Source: Eledone cirrhosa (Eukaryota). From it: 64,000 nt of DNA. The stretch is taken from positions 232,810,001 through 232,874,000 of the forward strand of contig OZ024743.1 of the NCBI GenBank assembly GCA_964016885.1. The letters are read 5' to 3'. Shown here piece after piece: positions 29,301 through 59,779 of the stretch. The translations under genes were made by a program, and so were the position numbers. The notes beneath the pieces were generated by a model, which saw only the letters and a list, made by a program, of their open reading frames with translations, was not told the DNA's origin and did not search any database. Position 1 is the stretch's first letter, and every line of letters begins with the position of its first letter.

Positions 29301-29724
29301 CCCACTAAAAGTAAGGAGCGAGACGTTCCCAGAAAAGACTCTAGACGCTTAAAGAAGTCTGGCCGTGATTGCGATTGCCCGGTCGGGGCATAAACGGCCA
29401 CCAGTCTGAAGGCTCCACCTCCAATACTGTTCACGTCTAGGACTACCAGTCTACCCTCCGGTTCCAAGTGTACTTGCTGTACTTCGACGTCCAGGTTCTT
29501 CCGAAACATAACAGCCACTCCACCTCCACCTCCTGGCTGACAGAGAGATGCGTAGATCTCAAAGTCGTCGAAGATGGGGGTTAGTTGCTGCCTGTTGTGG
29601 ATTCTGGACTCGGTGATGGCTATCACATCCATACTGTGTGACTAAGGTCGTTTAAAAGTTGGCCCTGTTTCCAGGGCATCCCTAGGCCACGCACATTCAC
29701 GGTTCCAACTCTTAAACTAGGCAT
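26352..29724 (-). pseudogene. Tx1 ORF2: APE endonuclease - reverse transcriptase - zinc finger (frameshifted)
   Basis: ATG at 29724 (MPSLRVGTVNVRGL). Motifs VYAP, GDWN, SYLDRFF, SDHK, GPGYWKLN, KSPGLDGLP, NFRPITLIN, KAFDRVDH and CPRC..ETVLH. Confidence 0.92.
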
Positions 29725-29894
29725 GTTGGTGAAGAAAAGTTTGAGAAAAAGGACGAATTGTGCACTTACCGTTTCGTTTCCTGGAGATCGGGTTGTTCAA
29801 TCTCCATTTGGGTGCTGGATGGAGTGTTGGGTGGGGTGGGAAAACATTTTAACAGGACGCGGTTGATGGGTTTGTGGCAGGGGTTGCCCACATC

Positions 29895-31685
29895 CTATGA
29901 AAATTTATTTTTTAGGTCATTATAGGTTTCCATAGAAACCCTTATAAGTTTAAGGTGTGGAGACGATTCTGCCTTGACGAAAGTTTTGCCCTCCGTCTCC
30001 ACCTTGAGGTTTTGGGAGATGACCTCCATCAAACTCTTGTTATTTGTGTTGATGTATGCGTATTGTTGTTTGTGTTTTTGTTGTGTTGTTTTAGTTTGTT
30101 GTTCGTCCGGGAGTTTTCTTTTTATGGTGGGTGCTTGTGATTGGGGTGGTGTTGGTGCTGGTTTTGCTGAGAGGCGGATGTTTGACTCTGGTGTTGTTTG
30201 TGTTGTTTTTTGTGTCTGTGGTTGTGTGTTGGTGTTGGTGATTGGAGTTTTGTGGGTTTTGTGGTGTCTCTTTTTTTGTTGTTTAGATTTCCACGGTTCT
30301 CCCTCTTCTTCACTTAAAGAAGGAGAAGCAGCTTCATCCGTCGATGAATAATCATCGTCAGGTGTGTGGGGTAGGGGTATGTTGTGTGGTGGTGGTGTTT
30401 CGGTGTGTGTGTTTGTGGTAGTGTTTGATGGAGTGGGATGGAGTGGGGCTGTGTTCTTCAGGGGTGTTGGCTCTGTTTTTTCTGTTGTTGTTGGTTGAGT
30501 GTCTGTTTGTTTTGGTGTGGTTGCTCGTTTCTTCTGTCGTTGTACTTGTGGTGGTGGTGGTGGTGGTGGTGGTGGTTTTGGTGTTGGTGTTGGTAGTAGT
30601 GTTGTTTTAATGATGTTGTTGTTGTGTGTTTGTGGACAAGAGGCTTTTAGGTGTGCTGTGCTACCACAGCGAAAGCAATGAAATTTTCGTCCTTCTACCG
30701 AAATATTTATTTTGTTATTATCGATGACGACTCTTTCGGGTATTTTGGAGATTCTCTCCGCTTTCATTTGCAACAGAATCTCCAAATCAGTACCCGCCCA
30801 CCTTTGTCGAATAGATTTTCGTATCGAAAGAATCATATGAGTTTCTGGCTCTACGAAGCCAGCCAAGATCCACCAGATGTTAATGTTTGGGGGTATGTTT
30901 TTTATTTTTATTTTTTGTGTCCTTTTTCCCATGTATGTAGGGAAAAAGGTGTATGCTTTTGACACCATTGGTGTCACAGAATGTTTTGGGGCGAGTGCCT
31001 CACTTTTAAACAGTACGGAAACACTTCCGTACTGTTTTCCTCGCTAGAGAAAATCGATATTTGCTAGAATTTCCTTGAAAGTAGCTTCTATATCTGCTTG
31101 GCTAACAAATGTCGGCTTTCTTGTGGAATTTGACACAGTCCTAAAGGTGACTGATCTGCGAATTGTGTCTTCCTTTATTTCAATGGGTGAGTTAATTCTA
31201 AACCCACCTCTTTCTTCGAAAGTTACAAATATTCTCCCTTGCTGGAGCATATCTCTTGCGTTGGAGATATCAAGATTTATAAAATCTTGTTTTTTGTTCA
31301 CTGTTTCAGCGAAAGACATTTTCTTTTTTTGTGTGGTGTTGCTGTTGTTGTTGTTGTTATCGTTGTTAGCCTCGGTGTTGGAAATTTCAGTTCCTTGTCG
31401 AGGTGAAACATTATGTGTAGATGTATCTATAGAGTTGTTGATGTCTTTTTCATGTGTATGTATGTTAATGGCTTTAATTCCTGTGTTTTCCTGTGTGTTA
31501 TTGTTATTTTTCTCCGCTTCGACGGTAGAAATTTTAAAATCTTCAAGTGGTAATATTTTTTCCTCTTTGTTGACAGTCGTATCTATGGCGACGTCCATAG
31601 TAGCAGAAGCAGATATAACGTTAATATCTGCCTCGTTCTCTCTCTTTTCTCTATTGACGTTCCCCAGCGTTCTTGTGTTGCTCAA
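29895..31685 (-). pseudogene. Tx1 ORF1 (nucleic-acid-binding; CFRCGSTAHLKASC zinc knuckle), broken near 31000
   Basis: ORFs 31044..31685 and 29895..30977. Confidence 0.8.
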
Positions 31686-31959
31686 GTTATTTAGTTTGTA
31701 AAATCTGATATTTTAAAACAATTTTTAAAATAAAATGTTCGCCCCTACAGGGGCAAAAAATGGGATTACCACCCAGCTGACAATTCAGCTTGGGGGTTAA
31801 TCTACAAAATGTTATGTTTTTTCAAACAATTAGTTCGGTTTTTTGCATAGAAATTAACAAAAAAGCTTACCGACGATGTTCCACGCGTCAGGCAGAAAGA
31901 GATAGATAGATAGATAGATAGATATGTTTCTTTTATTTAAAGATAGATAGATAGATAGA

Positions 31960-33265
31960 TATGTTTCATCAAAAGTGGGACAAGTACAAAGGGGGGAGTT
32001 TACACAAAAAGGCATCCTCAATAAGGAGGAGGCAATAACAAAATATAAAAATAAAATAAGATATAACAAAAAATAAAATGTTTAACAAAATCCTCAATAG
32101 AGAGGAGGCGCCTTGGGGGGTCGCACACACCCCCGAAAAAAGTGTGCAACCCTTCTCCTCAGGAGCACAGAGAAGGGGTGCTCCCTTGGTCTTTCATCTT
32201 CCTCACCTATAGTCTGATGTAGAGTGAAGGCCCATTCACACGGGCCATTCTCGCCACTTTCACCCATCTTTCATAGAAACGGCTGGGGTGCAGCACCTCT
32301 CTCTCCATCCTGATCCTTCTTCCGAAATGATATCGGAAGAAACGGACCAGTTGTTGGCCAGAGAGAAAGGTGCCTGACCTCAGTCCTTTCAGACGCGTCC
32401 ACCATACAACCTCTTTCGCCATGGCTATTACGCACAGAAACACCGCCTCTGCTTCATCTTTGAAGGGGGGAGGCGGCTTGATCATTACAATAGACTCGGT
32501 GGTCAACCGGATCGGTCCCACCCTTGACAGCAGTTGTTCGACATAGCCCCACAGATCGGCTACGCCCGAGCAGTGTACCAATGCGTGTGCAACGGTTTCC
32601 TCGTCGCACACGCATCTGGGACAGATCTTTTTGGCGGGGTCCCGACCCGGGCGCCCGTGTCTGTAGAGCCTTTCTCGAACGGGTAAAGCCCCTCGGTAGC
32701 ACTGCCAGGCCAGGGACTTCTGGAAGTTGTCCATAGGTCCTGGGCTGAATGTCCTACCGAACAGGCTGGCCAGTTCGTCCTCCTCCATGTCTAGGGCTTC
32801 TCCGAGGGCGTCGTCGCACCTGCTGCGTACCAGCCCTCTATAGAATGTTGCGGTGGAGTCTCCACTGATAACCGGATCCGCCTGCCAGAGGGCGGTGAGC
32901 GGCTGGGCACACTCAGTGTGCCAGGCGTCCAGTTTTCTCGGTCTTTGCTTGACCCAGGATTGCAGCTCGGTGAGTGAGACGAGTCTGGGAAAGGTTCGTC
33001 TCACAAACGAGGCCCACACCGGTTGTCCGGTGAGGAATACGTAGAGGTGCCGTAGCCTTAATGCGTGTTTACGCATCATTAGCCACGGCATCCCCAGCCC
33101 TCCTTTCGAAGGGTGTTGACAGCAGATGGATCTCCTCACCATAGGAGCCCGCCTCTTCCAAAGGAATTGGAAGAGCGCGCGCTCCATCTTGGTGAGGGTT
33201 TCCCTTGGGCAGGGCACTACGGTCAGGCGGTAGTAGATGACGGACGCTATGTAGGTGTTCGCCAC
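31960..33265 (-). mobile_element. 5'-truncated Tx1 LINE with an open 352-codon ORF2 C-terminal segment (32207-33265)
   Basis: Homologous to 26352-27410. Flanked by (GATA)n at 31942-31960 and 33266-33333. Confidence 0.9.
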
Positions 33266-33333
<68 letters not shown>

Positions 33334-34438
33334 AATAGGCTCATTCTACTGACCTGGCTTAAAAAGAGGCTGTTTGCATAACTGCAAACGAATTGAATAT
33401 TATTATTAATATTCGACAATACTAAATAAAGTACCAGTAATGCACTGGGTAATTGCTGGCCTTGTGCCTAAAGTAGAAACAATTATTAATATTCGACAAA
33501 CTCAGATTATATTTATGATATATATAAAGTAAACCTGTTAATTTATGGAGTTACTCACAGTTTCATAACATACAGCTTCGATTCAAATAAACGTTGTTTA
33601 ATCCCAAGAAGACGTCAGCTGATTCATGTTTTGTTGAACACTCAATAATTTCTATTCACTTTTGTTGTGTGCATTCACTGTATTCTGCGAAACATTCGAG
33701 AAGTTAAAATCAAAATATATCACCAATGGGTAACTGTTAAATAAATTAAAGCGTTATGTATCGATGGATAATTTGGATCTGCTAAATTCTAAAATCGAAA
33801 TTAATGGAACATTTAAGAAGCTATGTCGTAATCCAAAATTTACAATTAAAAATAAATAATATATAACATTATATTTCGGTAGCAAGATTACAAAACATGA
33901 ATGATTTTGTAAGTTTAGATAATCATAGATGTGATATACCCACACTATTCTACACTATCTGCTTACATTCACATACATACAATTCTAAATTCAAAGTGGC
34001 TTTGCCCAGCTGCCTAAAATGAATTAATTTTAGTGCTTTCATTTTCCGAAAGCTTACGAATTACTTTTGTTGAAATAGCTTCTGCTACATATAGGATAGT
34101 CTCTGAATTTCAAGAGCCATCCAGTGAGCATGTACCGGTTGCCTGTACATAAACAGGACGCCTCAATATGGAAAATGTTGACTGTAGTTCATTTCCTAGA
34201 TGTCGTCCCAAATTTAAATACGAAGTAATATAAACCATTTAGAAAACCAAATAAAAAGCTGGGTTATATTAACATGTCAACCACATAAGGTATTCAAAAA
34301 AATTGATAATATACCTAGAAGGAGTTTCGAAATGATTCCCCAAGTAGAAATATCTTTAACACGACAGTTCTTTCATAGCGAGCACATTCAAAAATAAGAC
34401 TTTCAATATTTCCAGTGCTAGACATAGAACATTATTCA

Positions 34439-36739: not shown

Positions 36740-37264
36740 ATTTCTATATTAAACATGATGTTTAAACTAATATATTAAGTACCTTATTTATTGCGGTTAC
36801 CCATACACACACATAGATATATATTGCCATAATAACACATTTTGAACTGCTTATCTTCAAAAACTATGCCTGTAAATAATATTATTTTTTCTTTCACATT
36901 ACCTTATCATGTTCCACATTACCCACTTTTTTTCTTTTTTCTTTTCACTTCAAAAACCTTGTTTGTAAATAACATTATTCTTTCTTCACGATTTCCTTAA
37001 CATGTTCAACATCACCAACATTTTACACCAATACAAATTCCCCCTTTGATAATGCATAAAATGCTGAAACCGGTAATAGACAATTATTAAATATATAAAT
37101 AAATAAATAAATGTCATTGTTAATTAATTAATAAATAAATTAACTAAAACCCAGAAAAATTAGAAAAAAATAAAAAGGAAAAAAATATATTTTTCTTTCT
37201 AATAATCGTCTTATTCTCCCTATTTTCATATATATATATATATATATATATAGGAACCAGTAAG

Positions 37265-37358
37265 ACCCCGACAGCTGAGCTCAAGCCGTTTCGACGGCTA
37301 ATTCTGGACTAAATGAAAATTTATCCTGGTATTTAAATAGCCGATCTTCTCAAGGGGT
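37265..37358 (-). ncRNA. Hammerhead ribozyme, family 3 (U3-A8 variant)
   Basis: Reverse complement of 39973-40066. Confidence 0.75.
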
Positions 37359-38244
37359 AATTCCATATATGGTCAAAGTGATTGTCAAAAATCAGTAGTA
37401 ATTCTGTGGTTGCAAATTAGTAGGGGAGATGGTGGCTAAACCTGCCAGTAGGAGAAAGAGGGGAGGGGGTGGAGTAGACCCAATCAAGCGTTGGTAGTGC
37501 CAGCTACAGCTGGGCATGAGGTCAAAGAAGAAACAGGGGAGGGGGAGGGGGAGGAAGTCGGAACGGTAGGTAGAACAATGGGGGGTAGAAATAGGAAAGA
37601 AAAAATACTGAGAGTGAAGAAAAGCAAATAAGTGTAAAGAAAAAAGTAAAGTAAATTAAATTCTACGACCTAGGTCTCAGGCTATTGTTAGGCAGAATAA
37701 AATAAAGAAAGAAAGAAAGAAGTAAAGAAATAAATAAATAACGAAATAACGAAATAAGTAAAAGAACTAGGTGGGACGGAATAGGCAAGGACCCTTTTAA
37801 GAGGTATAAGTACGTAAATGATACGGTGACGGGTCAACAAAAGGGGCCAAAATACTAAAGAGACTACCACGAAATAAACAATAAAGGTTTCCATCCCGGG
37901 CCAGCAACGACCCAGTGCAGCAAAGTGAACTTGTACGAGATAATAATTCTGAGTCCCGAGAAAAATATATACTAATGCTAACTCTAAAAGATCTAAAACA
38001 AGCTACATGAAAGTTCGTACGAAATAAAGGTAGAATACGGAGAAATAAATTCAGAATCCACCCCGCCCAGAAGAAAAGCGAAGCAAGAAATACTGAAACG
38101 AAAAAATAAGGCATAAGTGCCACTAAGAAATATAGAGGGCACAGAGAATAGTGGGAGCGGTCGGAAAAAGGGGGCAAGTATCCGGGGTCTAAGCCAACTG
38201 CTATAAAGGGCGGAGTCCGCCAAATCTATCATAGACTAGGGGAG

Positions 38245-38850
38245 GCTCATTGAAAAACACTTCCCATTACAACACCGCTACCACAACATAATTAACAAAA
38301 ATACCATCAAACTCTCTTACAGCACTACACCAAACTTCGCACAAAACATCGTCTCCTCTAACAACAAAAAACTCAACCCCGATGGCAGAAATAACCTAAA
38401 TAGCAGTGGAGAACCGACCAGGAGGTGTAACTGCCCGGATAGATCTATTTGCCCACTCGACAATAGATGCAGAGACCGTAATGTGATCTACCAGTGCAAC
38501 GTGAGGACGGATACCTCCAACAAAGCCTATATAGGACTTATCGCATGTGACTTCAAGACCCGGCTATACCAACATAGACATACCTTCCGAAACCCGGCCC
38601 GGCGTCACGCCACTACACTTTCGGGCCACATATGGGACCTCAAGGACAACAACATGACCTATGATCTCACTTGGAGATTACTGTCCAGAGCCAATTCTTA
38701 CACGGGAGGACGCCGTCCGTGCAATTTATGCTCGTAGGAAACTTTACAAATGCTGTTTTCGACGGACCAACTCCTAAACAAGAAAGATGAACTGGTCACT
38801 GCATGTAAACATAGATTGCGTAGGACTTACCTCGCCCTCAAACCCCATAA
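38245..38850 (+). pseudogene. Naiad linker + GIY-YIG endonuclease fragment
   Basis: KLSYSTTPN, CNCPDRSICPLDNRC, VIYQC..YIG..FKTRLYQH..TTLSGHIWDLK..CNLC. One internal stop. Confidence 0.85.
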
Positions 38851-39972
38851 TGACCCGGGGGGTAGACTAGGGCTATAACACCCCACTTGCCGATTTTGCA
38901 ATGGGTAACCCCTGCTTGCCAAGGAAGACGTAAGATCTTCTTTGTATTCTTTTATCGCTTCCTTTATTTCCTTCCCCCCTCTCTCTTTAGTCCTTCTACC
39001 CCAGCTCTTCTCCTTTGTCGGCGTCTTTTCTCGCCCACCCGAGGCTGCCCTTTGGCCCCATGTAGCCTTAGTACCCCCACCACCCCCTCCCCTAGTCTAT
39101 GATAGATTTGGCAGACTCCGCCCTTTATAGCAGTTGGCTTAGACCCCGGATACTTGCCCCCTTTTTCCGACCGCTCCCACTATTCTCTGTGCCCTCTATA
39201 TTTCTTAGTGGCACTTATGCCTTATTTTTTCGTTTCAGTATTTCTTGCTTCGCTTTTCTTCTGGGCGGGGTGGATTCTGAATTTATTTCTCCGTATTCTA
39301 CCTTTATTTCGTACGAACTTTCATGTAGCTTGTTTTAGATCTTTTAGAGTTAGCATTAGTATATATTTTTCTCGGGACTCAGAATTATTATCTCGTACAA
39401 GTTCACTTTGCTGCACTGGGTCGTTGCTGGCCCGGGATGGAAACCTTTATTGTTTATTTCGTGGTAGTCTCTTTAGTATTTTGGCCCCTTTTGTTGACCC
39501 GTCACCGTATCATTTACGTACTTATACCTCTTAAAAGGGTCCTTGCCTATTCCGTCCCACCTAGTTCTTTTACTTATTTCGTTATTTCGTTATTTATTTA
39601 TTTCTTTACTTCTTTCTTTCTTTCTTTATTTTATTCTGCCTAACAATAGCCTGAGACCTAGGTCGTAGAATTTAATTTACTTTACTTTTTTCTTTACACT
39701 TATTTGCTTTTCTTCACTCTCAGTATTTTTTCTTTCCTATTTCTACCCCCCATTGTTCTACCTACCGTTCCGACTTCCTCCCCCTCCCCCTCCCATGTAT
39801 CTTCTTTGACCTCATGCCCAGCTGTAGCTGGCACTACCAACGCTTGATTGGGTCTACTCCACCCCCTCCCCTCTTTCTCCTACTGGCAGGTTTAGCCACC
39901 ATCTCCCCTACTAATTTGCAACCACAGAATTACTACTGATTTTTGACAATCACTTTGACCATATATGGAATT

Positions 39973-40066
39973 ACCCCTTGAGAAGATCGGCTATTTAAAT
40001 ACCAGGATAAATTTTCATTTAGTCCAGAATTAGCCGTCGAAACGGCTTGAGCTCAGCTGTCGGGGT
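39973..40066 (+). ncRNA. Hammerhead ribozyme, family 3 (U3-A8 variant)
   Basis: ACCCC-TTGAGAA-GATCGGCTA...TAGCCGTC-GAAA-CGGC ttgagctca GCTG-TC-GGGGT. All three stems pair and the cleavage triplet is GUC. Confidence 0.78.
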
Positions 40067-40157
40067 CTTACTGGTTCCTATTACCCACTCTACTACCTCA
40101 AGTATTGAGTACTTTGGTGCGTTATGGTCCACCTGGTTCCTTACCACATTTCCTTCG

Positions 40158-40254: not shown

Positions 40255-41810
40255 ATGCCTACTAAAACAAAAACAGACTCCACTCTCATTAGCACCAATC
40301 AAGAGATACTCCAAGAACTACAAAAAATAAACTCTAATTTGTCAATACTCACCAACAAACTTAATTCTACAAGAGAAGAAACAATCCCCAAATACACATC
40401 CTATGAAATCAACGACAATATCCACAACTTATGTGAAACAATAAAAACACACCTGAATAACAACACAAATCCTATTCAAACGAACGAAAAAACACATGAC
40501 ACTAATACATTTACAACTTACCATTAAAATACAAATTAATACCACAATGGTACACATCTCTTAAAAACAGGAAATTCTCCTTTTGGAAGGTGATACAAAA
40601 CAATAACAAAGTGGAGATCTATGAAAAATGGATTAACCCATCCCCATTAATCATCCCCCGCAAACTACAAATTAAATCCATCCCAAACGAACCAGAGACA
40701 CAAAGACGCCTCAGGGAAAGAATGGCACTTGATAACATAAAAACCGAAATTGAACTCCTTAAATTGAGAGCCCAAGCAAATGAAGATAGGATCAAATCAA
40801 TCGACGATGAGATTAATCAAGCAATTGTCAATAAAACCAAAGACACCACCTGAGAAAATATTTCAACACTTTGGTTAGAGGACTGTATTAAGGAAGAATT
40901 AAAATCCCTTCAACGTTGGGAAATAAACGAAACCTCGTTCTCTAACTATGAAACACTTTTCCAAAAAGAACACACACCCAAGAACCCCTTCATTAAAACC
41001 ATAATAACAAGAAAACCCAATCACCACCCAAACACCACACAACAACCAACAACAACAAAAAACAATACCTCCTCACATACCAAAAAAAGAAGGCATCACC
41101 TCGCCCATATCTCCTACACCCACCACATAGCTACCACACGGATTCCCAAGCAACAAATATAGTAATAGAGAAACATCAGCTACAAGATAGACACTACAAC
41201 TTCTCTCCCACCAGGAGAAACCATAGAATCCCCCACACTTACAACCCCTCTAACATCCCCACACAACAAACCCACAACCATCATTACTTTCAACATAGAA
41301 CCCAAAATACACAACTACCATACATGCCACATAGGGTCTCACAACTACACAGCAACTATAAGGAAACCCTAATCTACCCTCCTCCACTAACCACATCCTA
41401 CTACAACAACACCAGCAGGGGACAATACAACCACACGAGATACCCTAACCACTATAACCACGATAACTACACACCATAGAACAACAACAGCAGGACTCAA
41501 TATAACCACACAAGACAACGCTACTACAACCACCACCAAGTCTACACACCCTAAAACAACAGCAGGCCTCAACACAACCATACAATACAACCCAACTTCA
41601 ACAATCACAACTACACACCCTATAACCACGTCCATCAAATCTACACACCCTACAACAACAACAGCAGAACTCAATACAACCACACGATACAACCTAACTT
41701 CAATAACCACCACAGCTACACACCCACTAACAACAACAGCAGGGGCCAATACAACCATAAGAGACATCCAAAACTCAACAACCACCACAACTTCCGTAGT
41801 CATTTTTTTA
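40255..41810 (+). pseudogene. Neptune 1 ORF1-like region (coiled-coil N-terminus + Asn/Tyr/His-rich repeats)
   Basis: MPTKTK..NQEILQELQKINSNLSILTNKL and IYEKWIN..PRKLQIKSIPNE..KTEIELLKLRA. Homologous to 44440-45597 (minus). Confidence 0.7.
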
Positions 41811-44090
41811 GACACAGCACACAGACACAGGGTAACAAGATAACACAAAACACACAGGAGACACAAAATGTAATAAAAATCGTTAATTTAACCTCTAAAG
41901 AATTAACAACAGACCAAATTAACATACTCTCCAAAGGTCTGAAATTTACATCAACTCCCCAACGACCAAACTACCCGAAATCGAGGAAGATATTGCAGAA
42001 TTCTGTAGAAAACTAAGACTCAGCGACAAATACAATGAGGATGACTCAAAAAATAGCCAGAAATAGAAGCAACTACACCCCACCAAAAAGCAAGAACAAA
42101 TTCCTCGATCAATTCTGCGAACACATTACTAATTACCCATACCACCACCTACACAGACATAATTAAAAACCAAACCTAAGCAAAAAAGAATGGAATTGTC
42201 TCAACAGTCTAAAGAACGACAAAACCCTAACAATCAAAGAGGTGGATAAAGGGAGTGCAATAATCCTTATGGGGACAGATTACTACACGACTCTAGTACT
42301 TTCAACTCTAGAAAACCAAACATATTACGAAAAGGCCCTCACTACACACAACATAAAATAATGAGAAACCTAAAATCCCTAACAACCCTTTACAAAGAAG
42401 GCCTTACCGACAAGGAATACAACTATATCACCAATTTGAAAAGCAGAACAAGCCTCTTCTACGGTATCCCAAAGACACACAGAAGCGAAGTAATAGGCAG
42501 AGCCTGCAAGCAAGCCACAGACATTTACATCAATATCACCCCCCTCCCCGCCTGATGACCTTAAATTAAGACCCATAATAGCAGGAACCACATATGAAAC
42601 CCACCACCTAAGCAACTTCCTAGATATTCTGCTTAAACCTTTCCTAAAACACATAAGAAGCTTCATAAGGGACGACCTTGACATGCTCAGCCACCTCCCA
42701 ATCAACACTTAATAATGAACATACCCTACTAGTAACCTTTGATGTCATCAATTTATATTCCAATATCCCACACAACCTAGGTATAGAGGCAATACAATTC
42801 TGGCTTGAAAATTTCCCTAGTGAACTTCCACAGCATATCCCTAAAGAATTTGTGTTGCAGGGACTCAAATTCATCTTGGAAAACAACTTCTTCGAATTCG
42901 ATGCCAAATACTACAGACAGAAATCTGGGACTGCCATGGGCACGAAAGTAGCCCCCTCATACGCCGCAAGGTTGTAGACAAATACGGTAACCACTTCTAC
43001 CTACACATAGAAAAGAACTGGAAGAGATATCTGGACGACTGCTTCATACTCTGGCATGAAAGTATAGAAAGACTGATTGAGTTTAAAACCCTTCTAAATG
43101 GACTCAACACAAACTTACAGTTTACAATGAATTACAGCCATGAACAACTCCCTTTCCTCGACATCCTTATCAAAAAAACAAACAACAAAATAGAAACAGG
43201 CATATACTACAAATCCAGAGACTCCAAACAATATCTTCCATTCAACTCGTGTCACCCTCGCCATACCAAAATGGCAATTCCTTATAACCTAGCCAGAAGG
43301 ATCTGCACAATAGTTTCAGATAAATACACATGCTACACACGATTAGAAGAATTAAAGAACACACTTATCAGCAGAAACTACCCACCATCCTTAATCAACA
43401 ATGGATTCCAACGTGCCCTAAAACTCAACATCCAGGAACTCAGACACCCCAAACCCAGGAATGATCCACAACAGAAAACTCTACCATACATCTCCACACA
43501 CAACCCTCTCATCAATGAGGCATTCGACATGATCCTCCAGAACATTCCTTTACTAAAGAGAGACACAAGAATGAACAAAATCCTCCAAACACACATCATA
43601 AAGAGCAAAAGACAACCTAAATCCATAAAAAACATCCTCACACAAGCCAAAATCCAACCAACTCTCACAATGAACCCTAAAGTAAAAAAATGCGGAAAGC
43701 CCAACTGTGGCATATGCTTAAATCCAATAGAAGGTTCAACATTCCATTTTAAACAACGACAACATTTCACAGTTAAACACAATTTTAAATGTGCATCTGA
43801 AAACCTAATCTATGTTTTGACCTGCTCAGGTTGTCAAGAGCACTACATAGGATAGACAAAAAACAGCCTCCGACAACGTATGACCGTCCATAGATCACAA
43901 ATCAAAATACAGGAATACAGAAAGATTGCTTTTAGTGAACATATCGCCAATTGTACACCTAACCAACATCCAAACTTTAAAATTTTCCCCATTTACAAAT
44001 TCATAGACAACGCTTCTTTCATCCAATAAGGAAACGTACTTCATTAACAAATTCCAACCTCTACTTAATGGACTAAACTTCGGACTAAAC
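41811..44090 (+). pseudogene. Neptune 1 reverse transcriptase + GIY-YIG endonuclease (multiple stops/frameshifts)
   Basis: IVNLTSKEL..LSKGLKF, FYGIPKTH, LRPIIAG, FDVINLYSNIP, GTAMGTKVAPSYA, KRYLDD, LPFLD, CGKPNCGIC and NLIYVLTCSGC..YIG. Confidence 0.9.
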
Positions 44091-44432
44091 TAAAACTGGA
44101 ACGAACAATGAACCGAAACCAAATCCCTATGTTCTCTAAAGAGTTACCTCCCTGACACCCTACCTAATCCTTTTTCTTATATAAATAAATTACCCCCTCT
44201 CATTTCTCTCTCCTCTACCTGACCACCCTGAATTGCCCTCCTGTATATTAACTCTCTAAAAAGGGAAATCGTTTCAAACCCCAGACTACCATTTGCCTCC
44301 ATCATGGATCAACTAAGCACTCTTGCCATAATAACACACTTTGAACTGCTTATCTTCAAGAACTATGCCTGTAAATAATATTATTTTTTCTTCCTAATAA
44401 TCGTCTTTTTCTCCCTATTTTCATATATATCA

Positions 44433-46560
44433 TAGGTCTAAAAAATGATTTTTCTGGAATGTTTTTTCAATGGTATTATTATATCTAATGGTATTTCCCC
44501 TGTTGTTATGTGGTCTTGTATAGAAGTTTCGGACGTATTGATGTTCGGTTTGTTGATAGTCCGGGTTGTAGATTTTGTTCCTTTGTGTGGGTTGGGATCT
44601 ACGGTTTGGGAACAGGCTCTGTGTGGGCAGGGGTCTACGGTTTTGGAATAGGTTTTGTGTGGGTTGTGATCTGCGGATCGGGTCCTGTCTTGTGTTGGGG
44701 GATCTTCGGTTTTTGTTAGTAGGGTTATAGTTTTGTCTATGGGTTCTGGGATTATCGTTATAGTTTTGCTGGGGGTATGTTGGACGTTTTGTTACTTTTT
44801 TTGTTATTTGTTGTGCATATTTGGTTACTTTTTTTTTATTTGTTGTGCATGTGGTGTGTGAGTTTTAGTTTGTTTTAACTGTATGTTTTTAATTTTTGAA
44901 GTCCATTTCGTAGTTGTTGAACCAGGTGGCATTTTTTCCCCATTGCTGGAGGGATGTTAGTTCTTCATCCTCACAGTTTTCTTTCCAAAGTTTTAAGGTT
45001 TTTTCGTAGAGTAGGCCTTCAGAGTGCTTTGAGATTTCTGTGTCCATCTGATGGTCGAGTGACTTGAATTTTTCTTCGTTGAAGTTAGCTCTTAATCGCA
45101 ACAGTTCTATTTCTATTTTAAATTTTTCCAACGCCATCTTTTCCCTAAGTGTTTGTTGGTTTTCTGATTCATTCGGGATGGGTTTTATTTGGAGTTTTTT
45201 GGGGAGGATGATTGGGGTAGAGTTTAGCCACTTTTCATATATGTCTGCCTTGCCATTATTATTTATGAGATTCCAAAAGGCGAATTTGCGGCTGTGAGCT
45301 TTTGAGTCCATATATTGATTAGGGTGTTTTTCACTGAGTGGACATCTCGTAGATTGGGTTCTAATGGTTGTTCTAGCTTTTGGAGCATTGCTGTTTCAAT
45401 GGTTTCGATTAGTTTAGTTAATGCTGGAGTAACATTCGTCTCTTGGATATTTTCTGTTTCTTCGTGGGGTCCTTTTTTATAGATGTGTATTTGGTCTACT
45501 TTGTTGGTCAAAATTGAGAGTTTAGAGGAAATCTCTTTGAGTTCATTTAAGATGTCCTGGTTCAGTGAGTTGTTGTTTTGTTGAACTTTGGTGGCATTTT
45601 CGGTCTTCGTGTGGTTGGTATGTATTAGAAAGTGAGGCTTTTTTTAACAAAATGAAAAATAACCGAGGTGTCCTACGTATAAAGAAAAAAAGATGAAATC
45701 GAAAATGCAACTGGAGACTTATTTAAAAAAATATATATATCTTTATTTGGTTCCTTTACCGGTTTCGCGAGTTCTTCTGCTTTTCAAAAGTAGAGTTCAG
45801 ATGGAGAGTCTGTGGTTTTTCTCACATCTGGTTGGTCTCTGAATGTTACTTGTTTTATATGGGAAAAGGTGGCTCGAAATGCCAGGTTTTTAGAGAAGTA
45901 ATTTGATTGGTTGGTCAATAATTATAATAAATTTCGCGCCAGTTCGCGTTACAAAGTTCTTCAAACAAGGAGGGGGGGACACAGGTTGTTTTTTCATGTA
46001 TGAGTGTTTGAATTTCTTTTTACTTAAAAAAAAGGGGTGGGGGCTCACGAAGGCTTTTTTTTAATTAACATAATTTGATTGGTTATAAATGAAATTATGG
46101 CTGTCACGTGAACAAGTTTTCATAACATTTTCGCGCCCTTATTTGGAAATCTATTCTGTAGCCTTTTTAGAGAATTTTATGACAAGCAAAAGATAATGGT
46201 CAAGAGAAATGGGATGGGAGAATTATTCTTGTTTAGTGAATATGGTTAGTTCGCTGGGGTGTCAGAATTCAGATTTTCTATTGAAGTAAAGAAAGTAAAG
46301 ATGTGTATGTTTATTTGCATGCTTGGGTGGGTGTGTGTGTGTGTGTGTGTGTGTGTGTATTGAAAGATGATTCTATTAGTAGAAATGGGGGAGGGAGTTG
46401 TGTGTGTATATGTGTGTTATGTGTGTGTGTGTGTGGGAGTATGTTAAGATGAAGAGAATATATATATTTTGTGTGTGTGTATATGTGTGTATATGTGAGT
46501 AGGAAAGTGATTCTATTAGTAGAAATGGGGGAGGGAGTACTGTTTAAACAGGCGGAGCAC
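44433..46560 (-). mobile_element. Neptune-type PLE 2, 5' part (pLTR + ORF1), inverted
   Basis: 45700-46540 is the reverse complement of the 50250-51455 pLTR. ORF pieces 45263-45597 and 44889-45311 are homologous to Neptune 1 ORF1. Confidence 0.8.
45754..45790 (-). ncRNA. Minimal hammerhead-like motif, family 8 (U3-A8)
   Basis: Minus strand reads CTT-TTGAAAA-GCAGAAGAACTCGC-GAAA-CCGG-TA-AAG. Confidence 0.5.
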
Positions 46561-47681: not shown

Positions 47682-49991
47682 CCACTTCCTCCTACAGGAC
47701 CCACGACACCCGGTGGCACAAGCCGATTTTGAAAAACCGAAAATAATCAACCTTTCAAATACAAACCTCTCAGCCCAACAAGTAAAAATTCTCTCCAAAG
47801 AACTGAAATTCACACCAACACAATAATACTCTAACGCCAATGAGATAAATAGATAAATGACGATATCTCACACTTCTGTAGAACATTACGTCTCACAGAG
47901 GAATTCTTTGACAAGGAGAATAACGACGAATCAATTGTACGGAATAAAAGCAGCTACAACCCAACAAAAGGTAGAAACAGAGTTCTGGACAAATTTTGTG
48001 ACCACATAGCTACTTTCCCATACCATGAACTACCGCAACCTAAACCCAAACCCAACACGAATCGAAGGGAATGGGAAATTACCCATGAACTAAAAAACAA
48101 TACGGACATTATAATTAAGGAAGCGGACAAGGGAAGTACTGTTGTCATTATGGAGGCTGAAAAATATAAAAATGTTATGTTCTCTCTCTTACAAAATACT
48201 AATTACTATGAAAGAATAAAAAACTACCAGCAATCAAAAACAATGACCAGATTAAACACACGGATTTATCGATACCAGGAAGACCTAACTAAAAAAGAAC
48301 GCGATTATTTAACACATTTTGAATACAAAACTAGCAACCTTTACGGACTTCCGAAGATCCACAAGTGTAAAATAATTAACGATGCCTGTAAACAATCCAC
48401 CCCAGCCCTCGTGAACACACAATACCCCACAGACCTTAAATTAAGACCAATTGTAGCGGGCCCACAATGTGAAACACACAGACTGAGCAACTTTATAGAC
48501 ATACTACTAAAACCAATTCTCAAACACATACCAAGCCTTGTAAGAGACGATCTGGACCTCTTAAACCAGCTCCCCAAACATGTCAACAACAACACTATTA
48601 TTGAGTCTTTCGATGTAGTGAATCTCTACACAACGATCCCACACAAATACGGACTAGAAGCAATAGGATTCTGGCTAGAGAAATATCCCAATGAGATACC
48701 TGGCAGAATAGAAAAAAGCTTCATCACCGAGGGATTAAATTTCATCTTACAGAAAAACTTTTTTTTATTTCGATGGTAGTACTTACAAGCAAATATCGGG
48801 GACTGCGATGGGTACAAAAGCCGCTCCAACTTATGCCAACTTAGTCATGGCATACTTAGAAGTCCAGATATATGAACAGTCCAAATCAAAATACGGATTG
48901 AACTTCCACAAATATTTATCAGAGAATTGGAAACGCTACTTGGATGATTGTCTCATTCTTTGATCCCACACACTCTACCAGCTGAAGGATTTCAAAAACT
49001 TAATAAACGGCATCAATAACCACATCCAATTCACAATGGAATAGAGCCAAGATCAACTACCATTTCTGGACATCTTAATCTTAAAAAAGACACAAATATT
49101 GAAACTGACATACACTACAAACCAACAGATTCCAAACAATACCTGCTATTCACCTCCAGCCATCCAAAGCACACGAAGACGAACATTCCTTTTAACCTAG
49201 CAAGAAGAATTTGCACAATTGTCTCCAATTATGAAACGCGAAATAAAAGACTTCAAGAATTAAAGGAAATTCTACTCGAAAGAGAGTACCCACTATTACT
49301 AATAATTAATGGAATAGAAAGGGCTAAAGCAATTGGCATTGATGAATTACGAAAACAGAAACAAATTCAAGGTACATCCAATATTCTATCATATATCTCA
49401 ACACACAACCCAAGAAATGCGGAAGCTTACAACACTATTCACAAGAACATCCCACTACTAAAACAAAACCCAGGAATGAAAAAATCCCTTGAAACACACA
49501 AAATAATCAAAAGCAAAAGACAACCGAAATCACTGAAAACATTACTCACCAATGCCAAATTACCTACCACAAACCCACAATCAAGTGTCAAAAAATGTGG
49601 TCGCTCTAATTGTGGGACCTGCACTCACCTCATTGAAGGCAACACGTATACATTTAAACCAGGACAAAATGTTACTGTAAAAAATCACTTCACTTGCTCA
49701 TCAAAAAATCTAATTTATGCCATTAAATGTAAAGGATGCAATGACGATTATATAGGACAAACTAAACTCACACTCAGAAACAGAATAACAGTTCATCGCC
49801 AACAATTACGAGATCCAACCACGAAACAGATACCACTAAGCGCACATCTAGACATATGCGCAAGTAATAAGACACCCAAATTCCAAGTCTTCCCATTTTA
49901 CCTTTGCACTAACAATACAACAGAACAAATACGAATAAATAAGGAAAATATGTTTATTCAAATATATAGACCAGCATTAAATATGGTTTAA
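47678..49991 (+). pseudogene. Neptune 2 reverse transcriptase + GIY-YIG endonuclease (disrupted)
   Basis: IINLSN..LSKELKFTPT, KEADKG, LYGLPKIHK, LRPIVAG, FDVVNLYTTIP, KRYLDD, CGRSNCGTC and NLIYAIKCKGC..YIGQT. Confidence 0.9.
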
Positions 49992-50741
49992 TATACATTA
50001 TGTCAACACCATAACATGCTACCCATCCAAACAGACACATAAACACGCACATAACACCTGCTACTTTAGAAAATAAAAAGCCGAACTAAATAAACCTTAA
50101 CATACGTTTGCGCTGACAATACAACAGAACAAAAACGAATAAGTAAGGAAAATATGTTCATTCAAATATATTCCTACTAAAGGAATCATTTTCCTACACA
50201 CACACACAAACACACACACACACACACACACAATATGTATATATATTCTCTTCATCTTAACATGCTAACCATGCTCCCACACACATAACACCCATACACA
50301 CACACACAACACCCTCCCTCATTTCTACTAATAGAATCACTTTCCTACACATATATATACATACACACACACACAAAATATATATATTCTCTCCATCTTA
50401 ACATACTCCCACACACACACACACACACACACAAGCACACAAATAAACATACACATCTTTACTTTCTTTACTTCAATAGAAAATCTGAATTCTGACACCC
50501 CAGCGAACTAACCATATTCACTGAACAAGAACAATTCTCCCATCCCATTTCTCTTGACCATTATCTTTTGCTTGTCATAAAATTCTCTAAAAAAGCTACA
50601 CAATAGATTTCCAAATAAGGTCGCGAAAATTTAATGATAACTTGTTCACGTGACAGCCATAATTTCATTTATAACCAATCATATTACGATTATTTAAAAA
50701 AAAAGCTTTCGTGAGCCCCTTTTTTAAGTAAAAAAAAATTC

Positions 50742-50830
<89 letters not shown>

Positions 50831-51361
50831 GCACACAAATAAACATACACATCTTTACTTTCTTTACTTCAATAGAAAATCTGAATTCTGACACCCCAGC
50901 GAACTAACCATATTCACTGAACAAGAACAATTCTGCCATCCCATTTCTCTTGACCATTATCTTTTGCTTGTCATAAACTTCTCTAAAAAGGCTACAGAAT
51001 AGATTTCCAAATAATGGCGCGAAAATGTTATGAAAACTTGTTCACGTGACAGCCATAATTTCATTTATAACCAATCAAATTATGTTAATTAAAAAAAAGC
51101 CTTCGTGAGCACCCCCTTTTTTTCAAGTAAAAAGAAATTCAAACACTCATATATGAAAAAACAACCTGTGTCCCCCCCCCCCTTGTTTGAAGAACTTTGT
51201 AACGCGAACTGGAGCGAAATTTATTATAATTATTGACCAACCAATCAAATTACTTCTCTAAAAACCTGGCATTTCGAGCCACTTTTTTCCATATAAAACA
51301 AGTAACATTCAAAGACCAACCAGATGTAAAGAAAAACCACAGACCCGCCATCTCAACTCTA

Positions 51362-51394
51362 CTTTTGAAAAGCAGAACTGCGAAACCGGTAAAG
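51362..51394 (+). ncRNA. Minimal hammerhead-like motif, family 8 (U3-A8)
   Basis: CTT-TTGAAAA-GCAGAACTGC-GAAA-CCGG-TA-AAG, with a palindromic stem III. Confidence 0.55.
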
Positions 51395-51470
51395 GAACCA
51401 AATAAATATTTATATTTTTTTAAATAAGACTCCAGTTACATTTTCGATTTCATCTATTTCACTCTCTCTC

Positions 51471-52249: not shown

Positions 52250-52264
52250 TAACAGATTAAAGTA

Positions 52265-52315
52265 AGTTTAAGCAAAGAATCGCTGCTTTCACCCTTAACG
52301 GGATCTTCTGAAACT
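52265..52315 (-). ncRNA. Hammerhead ribozyme, family 6
   Basis: Reverse complement of 58113-58163. Confidence 0.6.
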
Positions 52316-53515
52316 AACAAAGTCAATCTGTAAACGCAGAACTGGATATTTCAAAAAACGTTGCAACCGGAGGAAGACAGGAAGACGATACTTTGGTTCG
52401 TGGAAACGTTCGCTGGCAAAGAACGGGAAAAAACGAATAATACGTCATTAATAGGAGCGGTGAAAAACAATTTCGCGCAAAGACAGAACCACGTTTATGG
52501 TATAAAGAGGTCGTAGACTAATGTTCACTTAGGTGGTGCATAGAGACGTTCTCTGGCAATGAACGAAAAAACGAAGATAATAAGTCATATGTGGATCGTG
52601 GAGAACAATAGGACGCAAAGACAAAACCACGTAAATGGTATAGCAGAAGTCGTAGACTAAAATTCTAACTAGGAGACCAAATGAATCTCCGCTACAGAGT
52701 TAAGAACAAAGTAAATAAATGCAATACAGAAGTAATAGAAATAAATAAATACATACACGCAAACAGATACGTACATACACAAGCATACGCAAAACCTTAC
52801 CATAGGTATACAAAACCACGCATATATAAATATGTGTGTGTGTGTATGCTTGTGTACAAATAAATAAATAATTATATAAACGTATATAAGTAAATAAATA
52901 CGTATATAACAAGCGCACACACATACCTACAAATAAATACACGAATGTTCGGAGACGTAAGTCAACTAAAACAAGAAGTACACATATACACATATACACA
53001 CACCCACCATACGTACGAACCTGCATACTCACGCAGACGCAAAACTCCCGTATACACATAGCCGAACCCTAAATACCAGAATATGTAAAAATGATACGCC
53101 ATAACAGTCAAATATACGTACGAGAAGGTATACATACCTTCACAAAACATACGGGTAATATATACTTACCAATGCAAATAAGTAAAGGAATAAACAAAAC
53201 ATATACTTAGCTCCCACATCAAGACGTAAAATATCCACGTATAGATCGTGCTATCCGTTAGGGTATAACGTGGGGCTGTAATACAGGAAAGTTTTGTGCA
53301 ATTTATGTTTACAAGCCGAAATTGCCTCAGATTTTTTGTTTAAGATGTGGTCTGTGGCGTAGAGTATTTCCAGGGCCTCAGTGGCGCAGAGGTCACATGG
53401 TCTTTTATTTCCGTTATACGATCTAGCCCTAGCTAGGATCTCCCAGTGTAACTTATATTTGGGTGTGGTTGTCTTTTAGACTCCAGATATAAGCTGAAAG
53501 TGACGTCATATTCCT

Positions 53516-54541
53516 TCATGGAGGGTAACGAAAAGAATGGGTATGCATGTAAAGACGCTGCTTGAAACTATTGGCGGTTAACCCTATGTAGGCCCTACGG
53601 GACGTGGGTGTTACAATCTTACATTTGGAGACAATGTTACTAGAGAGGCATTTCCCGGATAGGGGGCAATCAGCCCGATTCCTACAATTACAGTTAGTAC
53701 TAACTACAGGGTTGCACGTGTTCCTACGGCTAAGTAGTTTAGCTAAATTTGAAGCTGTGATGTTATGTGCAAGGTTAGGAGTCGTAGAGTAAGAAATGTT
53801 AATAGTATTTCTATTACAAATTTTACTATATTTATGTGTAGGGGGAAAATGCTTCGTAATAAGGGAAAGAAAGAACTTAGCTAATGGTGTGGCCACCTCC
53901 ATATTATATGGTGGGTTAAACCAACAAATGCGACGGGATCTATTTCTTCTAGGTCTATTTTCGTACTCTGTATATGCTACCTTATCGACAAATCCACTTC
54001 GAGCAAGAGCTTCATTGTAATAAGTGGAATGGTCGTTGAAAATGCGCTCGTTGGTGGAAAGACGGGAAAGCCTCAACGAAACGTTTTTTACCAGGTTCTT
54101 GGTTATGCTGGCAGGATGGTTGGAATGCTTACTTATGTAATTAAACGTATCATTCGGCTTTCTATACGGGAAATACAACCCATTCAATAAATTGAGGGTA
54201 ACGTCGAGGTAATTAACGACCGAGAGATTGGCCTCAACCTGTATAGAGAGGTTGAAGCCTTTAAAGAAGGCTGTGAGTTCTTTTCTGAACCTGTCGCAAG
54301 CACGAGGTCCGCACTTAGTCATGGTCAAAAGACCATCGTCACGGTACAAACCACCGCACGCGTTGTGGAATTCGTCCTTGATAGAGAAAAGAAGGAAAAG
54401 GCCAATAAGATCAGTAACCCGCGCAGAGTCACTGGCGCCCATATTCACGTCGAATTGGGTACTATTGGATTTTTTAATCCAAATAGAGTCGTCGAAATTA
54501 ATCACCGACTTTTGGGCATTAAGGATGACATCAACTTCGAA
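53516..54541 (-). pseudogene. Inverted truncated copy of the Naiad 1 RT-EN ORF
   Basis: ORF 53516..54598, from FEVDVILN onward, is near-identical to 55887-56912 (GLYRDDGL). Confidence 0.88.
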
Positions 54542-55046
54542 AGTGCTATTGTTCTCCACGCTCCACATATGACTTATTATCTTCGTTTTTTCGTTCATTG
54601 CCAGAGAACGTCTCTATGCACCACCTAAGTGAACATTAGTCTACGACCTCTTTTATACCATAAACGTGGTTCTGTCTTTACGCCTAATTGTTTTTCACCG
54701 CTCCTATTAATGACGTATTATTCGTTTTTTCCCGTTCTTTGCCAGCGAACGTTTCCACGAACCAAAGTATCGTCTTCCTGTCTTCCTCCGGTTGCAACGT
54801 TTTTTGAAATATCCAGTTCGGCGTTTACAGATTGACTTTGTTAGTTTCAGAAGATCCCGTTAAGGGTGCAAGCAGCGATTCTTTGCTTAAACTTTAATCT
54901 GTTATTTTAATAAATATTTGCTCTACAGTTCTTATATATTTGATATATATTTTCCTTATCGAGCCCTCTATGGATTTTAGTCTTCAATTTTATTATTATT
55001 ACTATTTGGCTCCTTCGGTTGAGCACTCTACTGACTTATATTCATC

Positions 55047-56912
55047 ATGCAGAAACAACATCTGAATATTTCTACGAAGAACATACCCGTACCAAGCAGG
55101 AAAACATACCTAAAACTCCTTATACGGAAAACAGACGCGTTTATTAAAAGGTTGCGTTGGCGTGCCTTTTATTTCGATAATCCGCGAAAAGCAGACAACA
55201 AACAGGATAAATTTGGATTTAAAACCTATAATAACCCTCCGTGGAACCCAGCATTGCTACCCTTCGAAAATGATGTCTTGGAAGTCATTCGGAGTATCGA
55301 ATTTCGGAATAGGAGCAATTCCTTCCAGCAAGACCTGAAGAATAGAATTCGTTCTATTAAGGGTTCTAACGCCGTGCACGTCCATTCCGACAAAACTGGC
55401 AACCTATATCAAGTGGAGCGCAGTACTTACCATCAACTACTACATAATGCTGTAACTAAGGATTACCGTAAAACTAATCGGTGTGTCATCAATGAAATCA
55501 ACGATGCTGGGTTTAAAATCACATCTGATCTCAACATCCTGGACCGGACCGAACCTCTGGATCCTATCTCTCCCCACTTTACTCTGAAGGATCACAAATC
55601 CAATTTTCCGAACAACCCCTCTATTCGGTTTATTAACCCTACGAAGTCCGATTTAGGTAGACTTAGTAAAACGATTCTTGACAGAATTATACCTGAAATT
55701 AGAAGTTTGGCCCCTCTCGCACTGTGGAACAATTCCTTCGCGGTGATTGATTGGTTCAACGGCATATGTAACAAGGAACATTGCCGTTTTATCCAATTCG
55801 ACATCAACAATTACTACTCCTCCATCACTTTACCACTTCTCCTTAGAGCTATCAATTTCGCTAAAGCACTCAAAGTGGTTAAGAATTTCGAAGTTGATGT
55901 CATCCTTAATGCCCGAAAGTCGGTGATTAATTTCGACGACTCTATTTGGATTAAAAAATCCAATAGTACCCCATTCGACGTGAGTATGGGCGCCAGTGAC
56001 TCTGCGGAGGTTACTGATCTTATTGGCCTTTTCCTTCTTTTCTCTATCAAGGACGAATTCCAGAACGCGTGCGGTGGTTTGCACCGTGACGATGGTCTTT
56101 TGACCATGACTAAGTGCGGACCTCGTGCTTGCGACAGGTTCAGAAAAGAACTCACAGCCTTCTTTAAAGGCTTCAACCTCTCTATACAGGTTGAGGCCAA
56201 TCTCTCGGTCGTTAATTACCTCGACGTTACCCTCAATTTATTGAATGGGTTGTATTACCCGTATAGAAAGCCGAATGATACGTTTAATTACATAAGTAAG
56301 CATTCCAATCATCCTGCCAGCATAACCAAGTACCTGGTAAAAAACGTTTCGTTGAGGCTTTCCCGTCTTTCCACCAACGAGCGCATTTTCAACGACCATT
56401 CCACTTATTACAATGAAGCTCTTGCTCGAAGTGGATTTGTCGATAAGGTAGCATATACAGAGTACGAAAATAGACCTAGAAGAAATAGATCCCGTCGCAT
56501 TTGTTGGTTTAACCCACCATATAATATGGAGGTGGCCACACCATTAGCTAAGTTCTTTCTTTCCCTTATTACGAAGCATTTTCCCCCTACACATAAATAT
56601 AGTAAAATTTGTAATAGAAATACTATTAACATTTCTTACTCTACGACTCCTAACCTTGCACATAACATCACAGCTTCAAATTTAGCTAAACTACTTAGCC
56701 GTAGGAACACGTGCAACCCTGTAGTTAGTACTAACTGTAATTGTAGGAATCGGGCTGATTGCCCCCTATCCGGGAAATGCCTCTCTAGTAACATTGTCTC
56801 CAAATGTAAGATTGTAACACCCACGTCCCGTAGGGCCTACATAGGGTTAACCGCCAATAGTTTCAAGCAGCGTCTTTACATGCATACCCATTCTTTTCGT
56901 TACCCTCCATGA
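55047..56912 (+). CDS. Naiad-type PLE polyprotein: reverse transcriptase + CNC..CPL..C linker + GIY-YIG N-terminus (EN C-terminus continues past a stop/frameshift to ~57150)
   Basis: 621 aa with STKNIPVPS..KRLRWRAFYF, SDKTGNLY, TLKDHK, RFINPTKS, QFDINNYYSSI, FDVSMGA.D.AEV, HRDDGL, NYLDVTL, SNHP and WFNPPY. Confidence 0.88.
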   Translation: MQKQHLNISTKNIPVPSRKTYLKLLIRKTDAFIKRLRWRAFYFDNPRKADNKQDKFGFKTYNNPPWNPALLPFENDVLEVIRSIEFRNRSNSFQQDLKNRIRSIKGSNAVHVHSDKTGNLYQVERSTYHQLLHNAVTKDYRKTNRCVINEINDAGFKITSDLNILDRTEPLDPISPHFTLKDHKSNFPNNPSIRFINPTKSDLGRLSKTILDRIIPEIRSLAPLALWNNSFAVIDWFNGICNKEHCRFIQFDINNYYSSITLPLLLRAINFAKALKVVKNFEVDVILNARKSVINFDDSIWIKKSNSTPFDVSMGASDSAEVTDLIGLFLLFSIKDEFQNACGGLHRDDGLLTMTKCGPRACDRFRKELTAFFKGFNLSIQVEANLSVVNYLDVTLNLLNGLYYPYRKPNDTFNYISKHSNHPASITKYLVKNVSLRLSRLSTNERIFNDHSTYYNEALARSGFVDKVAYTEYENRPRRNRSRRICWFNPPYNMEVATPLAKFFLSLITKHFPPTHKYSKICNRNTINISYSTTPNLAHNITASNLAKLLSRRNTCNPVVSTNCNCRNRADCPLSGKCLSSNIVSKCKIVTPTSRRAYIGLTANSFKQRLYMHTHSFRYPP

Positions 56913-58163: not shown

Positions 58164-58269
58164 TTAATCTGTTATTTTAATAAATATTTGCTCTACGGTT
58201 CTTATATATTTGATATATATTTTCCTTATCGAGCCCTCTTTGGATCTTAGTCTTCAATTTTATTATTAT

Positions 58270-58327
<58 letters not shown>

Positions 58328-59720: not shown

Positions 59721-59779
<59 letters not shown>

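Follow-up and report, generated by a model that had tools for sequence, protein, structure and literature searches.

Penelope-like elements in the window

The DNA analyzed here, in the following called the window, comprises 64,000 nucleotides of the Eledone cirrhosa genome (assembly GCA_964016885.1, contig OZ024743.1, positions 232,810,001 to 232,874,000 of the forward strand). It harbors copies of two Neptune-type Penelope-like elements (PLEs), element 1 of family F1 and element 2 of family F2. A preliminary description of the sequence had suggested that in both of them an upstream open reading frame (ORF1) ends at a shared slippery heptamer, where a candidate -1 frameshift leads into the reverse transcriptase (RT) frame. 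The heptamer T TTT TTA (U UUU UUA in RNA) is abbreviated T6A, while T7A and T5A denote forms with one T more or one T fewer. The following features were assigned:

40255 to 41843, plus strand: ORF1 of element 1 (F1), broken by stops and frameshifts; helical core and a tail rich in Asn, Gln, Arg, His and Tyr
41797 to 41799, plus strand: stop closing the RT frame, TAG (TAA in a subfamily), one codon 5' of the heptamer in T6A copies
41803 to 41810, plus strand: slippery site of element 1, T7A here, T6A in 21 of 30 F1 copies
41804 to 44070, plus strand: broken ORF2 of element 1, with RT, a linker finger of the type CX4CX2C (CGKPNCGIC, approximately 43690 to 43717) and GIY-YIG endonuclease
41841 to 41843, plus strand: TAA, ORF1 stop of the F1 family, 10 codons past the Leu codon
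44071 to 44434, plus strand: 3' untranslated part of element 1, adjoining the break point of element 2
44435 to 45597, minus strand: ORF1 of element 2 (F2), broken; ATG at 45597, cut 4 nt past the heptamer
44439 to 44445, minus strand: heptamer of element 2, T TTT TTA, in phase with ORF1
45598 to 46538, minus strand: terminal repeat and 5' region of the F2 insertion, an inverted copy of its 3' end
47692 to 51454, plus strand: half of the F2 insertion with RT and endonuclease, together with its 3' terminal repeat, broken; starts 9 nt 3' of the heptamer position, frame end at 49991

Both junction sequences were detected at the sites described previously, CATTTTTTTAGAC at 41801-41813 on the plus strand and CATTTTTTAGAC at 44447-44436 on the minus strand, each being the sole match to the pattern on its strand. 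The regions 5' of RT in the two elements are homologous (49-52% amino acid identity, E 1e-41), and in element 2 the Asn/Tyr-rich frame indeed reads AAT CAT TTT TTA GAC, placing T TTT TTA in the phase of ORF1. Element 1 carries ORF1 upstream of RT as described, but the insertion to which element 2 belongs is broken 4 nt past the heptamer. Its RT half was found inverted at 47692-50441 on the plus strand. In comparison with an intact relative (heptamer at 1314), 45768-44435 of the minus strand corresponds to positions 1-1324 and 47692-50441 of the plus strand to positions 1329-4065. From this complementary coverage we concluded that the two segments are halves of one F2 insertion, the 5' part of which is inverted. 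The inversion breaks 4-9 nt past the heptamer (window positions 44435 and 47692) and the 3' end of element 1 adjoins the break, which may be due to chance; the remaining 29 F2 loci examined continue through that break position, but had been selected for doing so. Element 1 is full-length and decayed, with stops and frameshifts in both halves. Its additional T does create the proposed frame of 153 codons (41555-42016) running into IVNLTSKEL..LSKGLKF at the RT start. As this copy is decayed and T7 was present in one of 30 F1 copies, the fusion is a private change and no evidence of function. Contigs of four public runs exhibited one T fewer at 41803. Both window copies are dead.

Domain and motif tests, complemented by an alignment by eye with rows of Neptune and Nematis, assign the elements to the Neptune-type PLEs. 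In ORF2 of F2 the Pfam domains RVT_1 and GIY-YIG scored 30.5 and 28.2 bits, respectively, each exceeding its cut-off. A CX2-5CxxC finger resides in the RT-endonuclease linker, and two Cys are located between GIY and YIG (CGRSNCGTC and NLIYAIKCKGCNEDYIG in F2); the linker finger of element 1 reads CGKPNCGIC. Upstream of ORF1, locus L061 and the F2 insertion of the window carry their 3' end in inverted copies, which correspond to pseudo-long terminal repeats. No hammerhead was among 58 Rfam matches at E≤1 for five loci, some of which stop short of the 3' end. By eye, a hammerhead-like arrangement (TTGAGAAG, a paired stem and CGAAAC) was seen at 39975-40045 in the window, at a repeat end upstream of element 1.

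Intact relatives contain two overlapping reading frames

Relatives were sought in the genome (3.0 Gb), in which a first pass yielded 1179 candidates for the junction of element 1 and 541 for that of element 2, and further searches beyond F1 and F2 gave five more families (F3-F7). A loose pattern count (2710) was not above its control (3036) and was used solely for finding families. Ten duplicates were dropped from 179 loci, leaving 169; window element 2 and three 5'-truncated F6 loci were left out. The counted loci are the best-scoring matches, not a random sample, and for this reason are young.

In intact F2 copies, ORF1 spans 409 codons between stops, or 400 when counted from its ATG. ORF2 has a length of 773-775 codons, lies in the -1 frame and overlaps ORF1 by approximately 90 nt. 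The same layout was found in F3 (ORF1 427 codons), F6 and F7 (ORF1 455 codons). Thus, the overlap of ORF1 and RT in -1 phase is present in intact copies of four families, which have two overlapping ORFs and not the single ORF of a canonical endonuclease-bearing (EN+) PLE. In F1, F7, F2, F3, F6 and L128, the RT frame is closed 1-10 codons 5' of the heptamer and stays open from the heptamer until the ORF1 stop is reached. L128 is an outside element (ORF1 homology E 5e-15) on a contig of a bacterial metagenome-assembled genome, this contig probably being host DNA. Upstream, stops occur in the RT frame at a rate of 7% per codon (64 stops in 900 codons), p being approximately 0.01 for ten codons. 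The first Met of the RT frame is located 42-155 codons past the heptamer, within or beyond the first RT motif, in F1, F2, F6, F7 and L128.

The best 120 RT homologues in the protein database were all shorter than 800 amino acids, lengths of up to 1357 having been searched, and a weak search for longer fused ORF1 proteins gave none. Those homologues with a name, which point to a mollusc and likely an octopus as the host of the present elements, belong to mussels, oysters, a scallop, Solemya, Octopus or to symbiont assemblies, which likely carry host DNA. Similarly, L128-L134 are animal Penelope-like elements inside bacterial genome assemblies, a probable host contamination. A gene model of Mytilus coruscus (P0020) contains the ORF1 tail, ERFFR and RT, the same fused reading as the T7 copy of the window. 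Scans of metagenome and viral contigs found nothing.

One continuous ORF as the family form was considered and rejected. Six of 104 matches exhibited frames of 998-1181 codons; they are F3 copies in which a C run 30 nt downstream has changed in length. This run, 7 to more than 20 nucleotides long, is very unstable (L097, L105, L109, L111, L114, L115, L124-L126), perhaps in part by sequencing error. Nor could ORF1 be traced to an N-terminal extension in a PLE with one ORF: the extension of L134, which contains one ORF of 1006 codons, had no match (probability 0.7%).

Conservation of the heptamer

The exact sequence T TTT TTA in ORF1 phase was found in 154 of the 169 distinct copies from seven families, T7A and T5A in two copies each. 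By family, T6A was present in 21/30 (F1), 53/56 (F2), 28/29 (F3), 2/2 (F4), 1/2 (F5), 27/27 (F6) and 22/23 (F7) copies. Even though the F1 query carried T7, its 30 best loci comprised 21 with T6A, T7A in the window copy alone, one T5A and seven substitutions. Thus, the family form is T6A and not T7A, and the heptamer has been kept in seven families at saturated synonymous distance. This exceeds chance: codon usage of these ORFs predicts the spelling T TTT TTA for His/Pro-Phe-Leu in 1-2% of cases. Five ORFs were examined for Phe-Leu elsewhere, and all 13 further pairs were spelled differently.

ORF1 encodes a conserved protein family

Within the first 260 codons of ORF1, nonsynonymous distances (dN) of 0.23-0.47 and synonymous distances (dS) of at least 1.76 were determined between families. 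ORF1 is under purifying selection and a real protein family. Searching with an ORF1 profile gave 821 matches among 50% cluster representatives at E≤0.001 and 405 at 1e-10, and none of the best 150 exceeded 553 amino acids; an organism was recorded for one of 20 homologues checked (Mytilus). After a chimeric (P0257) and a duplicate sequence (P0128) had been dropped from 94 long homologues (at least 290 amino acids), 72 of the remaining 92 exhibited Phe-Leu within the last 50 residues, compared with 8, 3 and 19 of 94 in control windows further upstream. The residue in front of Phe-Leu was in no case one that lacks a U-ending codon (K, Q, E, M or W; 0/72 vs 19% of tail residues; binomial p 2e-7, kinship ignored). 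Five other homologues (P0137, P0162, P0172, P0230 and P0258) end with Phe-Arg followed by 9-11 residues, not with Phe-Leu and ten residues, which may reflect another shift site with equal spacing.

No Pfam domain above cut-off was detected in ORF1. The AlphaFold model of the protein consists entirely of long helices (predicted local distance difference test score, pLDDT, 74) and gave no match to a structure in the PDB, while its Atlas matches to gag and coat clusters all remained under 0.9 and are leads only. The C-terminal tail is basic and to about one half composed of N, Q, R, H and Y. The modelled long helices together with the basic low-complexity tail suggest that ORF1 may be an RNA-binding structural protein of a particle.

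A candidate -1 frameshift and its possible stimulator

In these elements a heptamer of the type X XXY YYZ lies in the phase of ORF1, and ORF2 is in the -1 frame, open from the heptamer onwards and overlapping the end of ORF1. The frameshift put forward in the preliminary description was corroborated by the T6A family form, the -1 overlap, the conservation in seven families and the fact that an AG behind the T run is not universal. ORF1 overlaps the RT-endonuclease frame by -1 at the conserved U UUU UUA. According to the model, a minority of ribosomes would slip back one base at the heptamer and produce an ORF1-RT-endonuclease fusion, the remaining ribosomes would make ORF1 alone, and a gag/pol-like excess of ORF1 over the enzyme would be obtained. 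We estimate a probability of roughly 0.8 that the elements are two-gene Neptune-type PLEs with a gag-pol-like -1 frameshift at U UUU UUA; it is from the sequences that we infer the slip itself.

The distance between the Leu codon of the heptamer and the ORF1 stop was exactly 10 codons in 21 of the 72 homologues and never shorter, and the ten residues have no common sequence. Spacers of 10 codons were found in F1 and F7, of 20 in F2, of 19 in F3, F5 and L128, and of 23 in F6. Where the stop is located 10 codons past Leu, as in F1, a terminating ribosome might hold up its follower at the heptamer; the terminating ribosome would then take the place of an RNA structure as stimulator. We consider such a structure-free frameshift, triggered by a ribosome terminating at the ORF1 stop and blocking its follower on the heptamer, a tentative and rather doubtful proposal. 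The pattern of the ORF1 tree indicates that the 10-codon spacing is old and was kept over long branches, yet is clustered and not universal. F1 falls into a well-supported group with otherwise 19-26 codons, in which Trp (TGG) is often found at the +11 place. Past the heptamer, an Asp-Thr-Arg-Trp motif was observed in the ORF1 frame (L061 5158-5228, L119, P0001-P0006). Its Trp codon is situated at the stop place of the 10-codon class and gives AUG or GUG in the RT frame.

Opposing evidence and alternative explanations

Several observations, together with the AG and AUG triplets treated below, weigh against the proposed frameshift or its stimulation by a terminating ribosome. The predicted stem-loop 3' of the heptamer was not found by folding: in 45 or 70 nt past any of eight junctions no significant fold was present, pseudoknots being outside the folding. 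The z-scores of all junctions from the own genome ranged from -1.25 to +1.26, and L128 alone reached -2.3, at 100 nt. In F1 the first 70 nt past the site had a folding energy of zero, and the F1 and F7 sequences are too A/C-rich to pair. As a stimulatory hairpin is absent, frameshift efficiency may be low. The spacing differs from 10 codons in 51 of 72 homologues and in F2-F6. In a quick tree of 76 ORF1s the 10-codon class required six changes (at least four forced by starred branches), compared with a shuffled mean of 14.3. A periodic spacing of 20, 30 or 40 codons, which was considered for a queue of ribosomes, was discarded, as the enrichment (18/48, p 0.16) was not significant. The heptamer is broken in four F1 copies with a common TTTTATA (L010, L012, L025 and L026, within 10 Mb on contig C1, of which only L025 and L026 are near-identical) and in two with a common TTATTTA (L024 and L029), which may reflect old duplication or mobilisation in trans. 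L128 carries U UUU UUG, a poorer fit. Finally, codons of the homologues were deduced from protein sequence alone.

The preliminary description had offered another interpretation, in which TTTTTTAG is a splice acceptor, so that unspliced RNA would encode ORF1 and spliced RNA the RT-endonuclease. An AG does directly follow the T run in six of the seven families, in 51 of the 72 homologues Phe-Leu is followed by an amino acid encoded by codons starting with G, F6 and L128 exhibit their next downstream AG in the same RT-frame phase, and introns are known in 5' regions of PLEs (PMC8557442). However, in F6, a young family, all 27 copies read TTTTTTAAC, without an AG directly past the heptamer; the same applies to L128 with TTTTTTGTT, and in 21 of 72 homologues the codon after Phe-Leu is unable to start with G. 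The 20 nt 5' of the run are just 30-60% pyrimidine, another AG lies 5-10 nt upstream in some families, and a crude donor scan disclosed no donor of the needed phase within ORF1 of F1, F2, F3, F6 and F7. Moreover, splicing does not need the codon phase of the run, and T-to-C exchanges within it were not detected at saturated synonymous distance. Among the joints listed for an intact F2 copy and the window junction in four runs of unrecorded kind (48 joints unlisted) none was at the AG, a result which is mute on splicing. Taken together, we regard a splice acceptor as highly unlikely. An independent start of ORF2, by re-initiation or internal initiation at codon 12 of the RT frame, a position overlapping that of the stop or Trp codon at +11 in ORF1, is also unlikely. 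At codon 12, F3, F4 and F5 have AUG followed by G at +4 and F2 has GUG, for many RT homologues in the database the called start lies 4-20 residues ahead of the first motif, and in the 10-codon class the stop coincides with the candidate start. On the other hand, codon 12 is AUA in F1 and F7, no AUG, CUG, GUG, UUG or ACG precedes the first RT motif in F6 and L128, and 39 of 106 RT homologues are called from within this motif. A separate start would also leave unexplained the in-phase heptamer and the RT frame that is open from the heptamer to codon 12; in F3-F5 it could serve as an additional route. Splicing and an own start are disfavored because F6 lacks a directly following AG and because, in four families, the first RT motif is not preceded by an AUG.

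Slippage of RNA polymerase on the T run, adding one U and thereby generating a fused mRNA like that of the T7A copy, would agree with the window, where one extra T fuses the frames. We judge it extremely unlikely, since T7A and T5A are equally rare (2 and 2 of 169) and this process needs no X XXY YYZ codon phase, yet the phase is broken in none of the 72 homologues.

Other elements in the window

Further Penelope-like pieces are located at 7068-8399 (minus strand), 12632-14646, 37250-40081 and 52264-61393. They comprise an RT/endonuclease end related to F1 as well as several pairs of inverted pieces from another GIY-YIG family, which contains a frame of 625 codons at 55035-56909. At 26355-33340 (minus strand) a decayed element resembling a long interspersed nuclear element was found, with a gag-like frame, apurinic/apyrimidinic endonuclease and RT pieces.

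Implications

EN+ PLEs have been described as single-ORF elements, for which neither a capsid-like nor an ORF1p-like protein is known. A junction of the gag/pol-like kind and an ORF1 that is conserved and has hundreds of homologues alter the annotation and the biochemical rebuilding of EN+ PLE proteins. In several families the RT frame by itself has no start. Many copies contain unbroken frames and therefore the junction is directly testable. If the model with a terminating ribosome as trigger holds true, there would be a widespread bicistronic clade of EN+ PLEs with an undescribed structural ORF1 family and with an enzyme output tied to ribosome load, as well as a natural eukaryotic frameshift having another ribosome as stimulator. 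Sequence-independent spacers of 10 codons would be natural cassettes for the question of collision-programmed frameshifting at stop codons in eukaryotes.

Comparison with known systems

According to the preliminary description, a T6A frameshift links the coiled-coil and RT ORFs in endonuclease-less Athena elements. The elements studied here share with the Neptune clade the RT, the CX2-5CxxC linker finger, the C-terminal GIY-YIG, inverted terminal repeats and (TA)n flanks. Their finger-to-GIY spacing is like that in the rows of Neptune1_Nv and Neptune-1_Ac and unlike that in the short Nematis rows (PMC8557442 supplement). Canonical EN+ PLEs, as previously noted, have been described as single-ORF elements (PMC8557442), in contrast to the separate ORF1 of 400-455 codons overlapping RT in -1 found in this study. 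An upstream zinc-knuckle ORF1 is present in two Chlamys families (PMC8557442 supplement), and a killifish Neptune has a short, non-overlapping ORF1 of 420 nt, for which the available text does not mention a frameshift (PMC12602865).

A PLE ORF1 separable by a frameshift with a pseudoknot is indicated in the legend of Fig. 1 in PMC8557442, where coiled coils are also listed. A frameshift-separated ORF1 of this kind, which probably belongs to the Athena/Terminon clade, resembles that of the present elements. Those described here differ from this clade in that GIY-YIG is fused to RT, copies are spread genome-wide over all large contigs and are not telomeric, and a 3' hairpin is absent. In the literature searched, no account was found of an EN+ PLE whose ORF1 is frameshifted, though some of this may be contained in Arkhipova 2006, Gladyshev 2007, Arkhipova 2017 or Repbase; the available parts of PMC3846280, PMC6431247, PMC5408684 and PMC13282606 contain no such junction.

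With HIV-1 gag-pol the elements have in common the layout of structural protein and enzyme and the shift site U_UUU_UUA, which is named as the HIV-1 slippery site in PMC5009743, in agreement with the preliminary description. As in the elements, an evident 3' structure is lacking in Semliki Forest virus, an alphavirus that nevertheless frameshifts (PMC5009743). The first 300,000 characters of this source do not mention Penelope. The present element is non-viral, has no 3' hairpin and possesses an ORF1 without a Pfam or PDB match to Gag.

Where the 0-frame stop is located affects frameshifting in SARS-CoV-2 (PMC8168617). With E. coli reporters, -1 slippage of a trailing ribosome was found to increase when the one ahead had stalled at a stop, with a peak at a 9-codon spacer and a range of 8-10 codons (Smith et al. 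2019, PMC6815119). Those reporters are a synthetic bacterial construct, whereas ours would be a natural eukaryotic case into which only part of the family fits. Both have a heptamer, no RNA structure and a stop one ribosome length downstream, here 10 codons, a spacer that would fit the larger ribosome.

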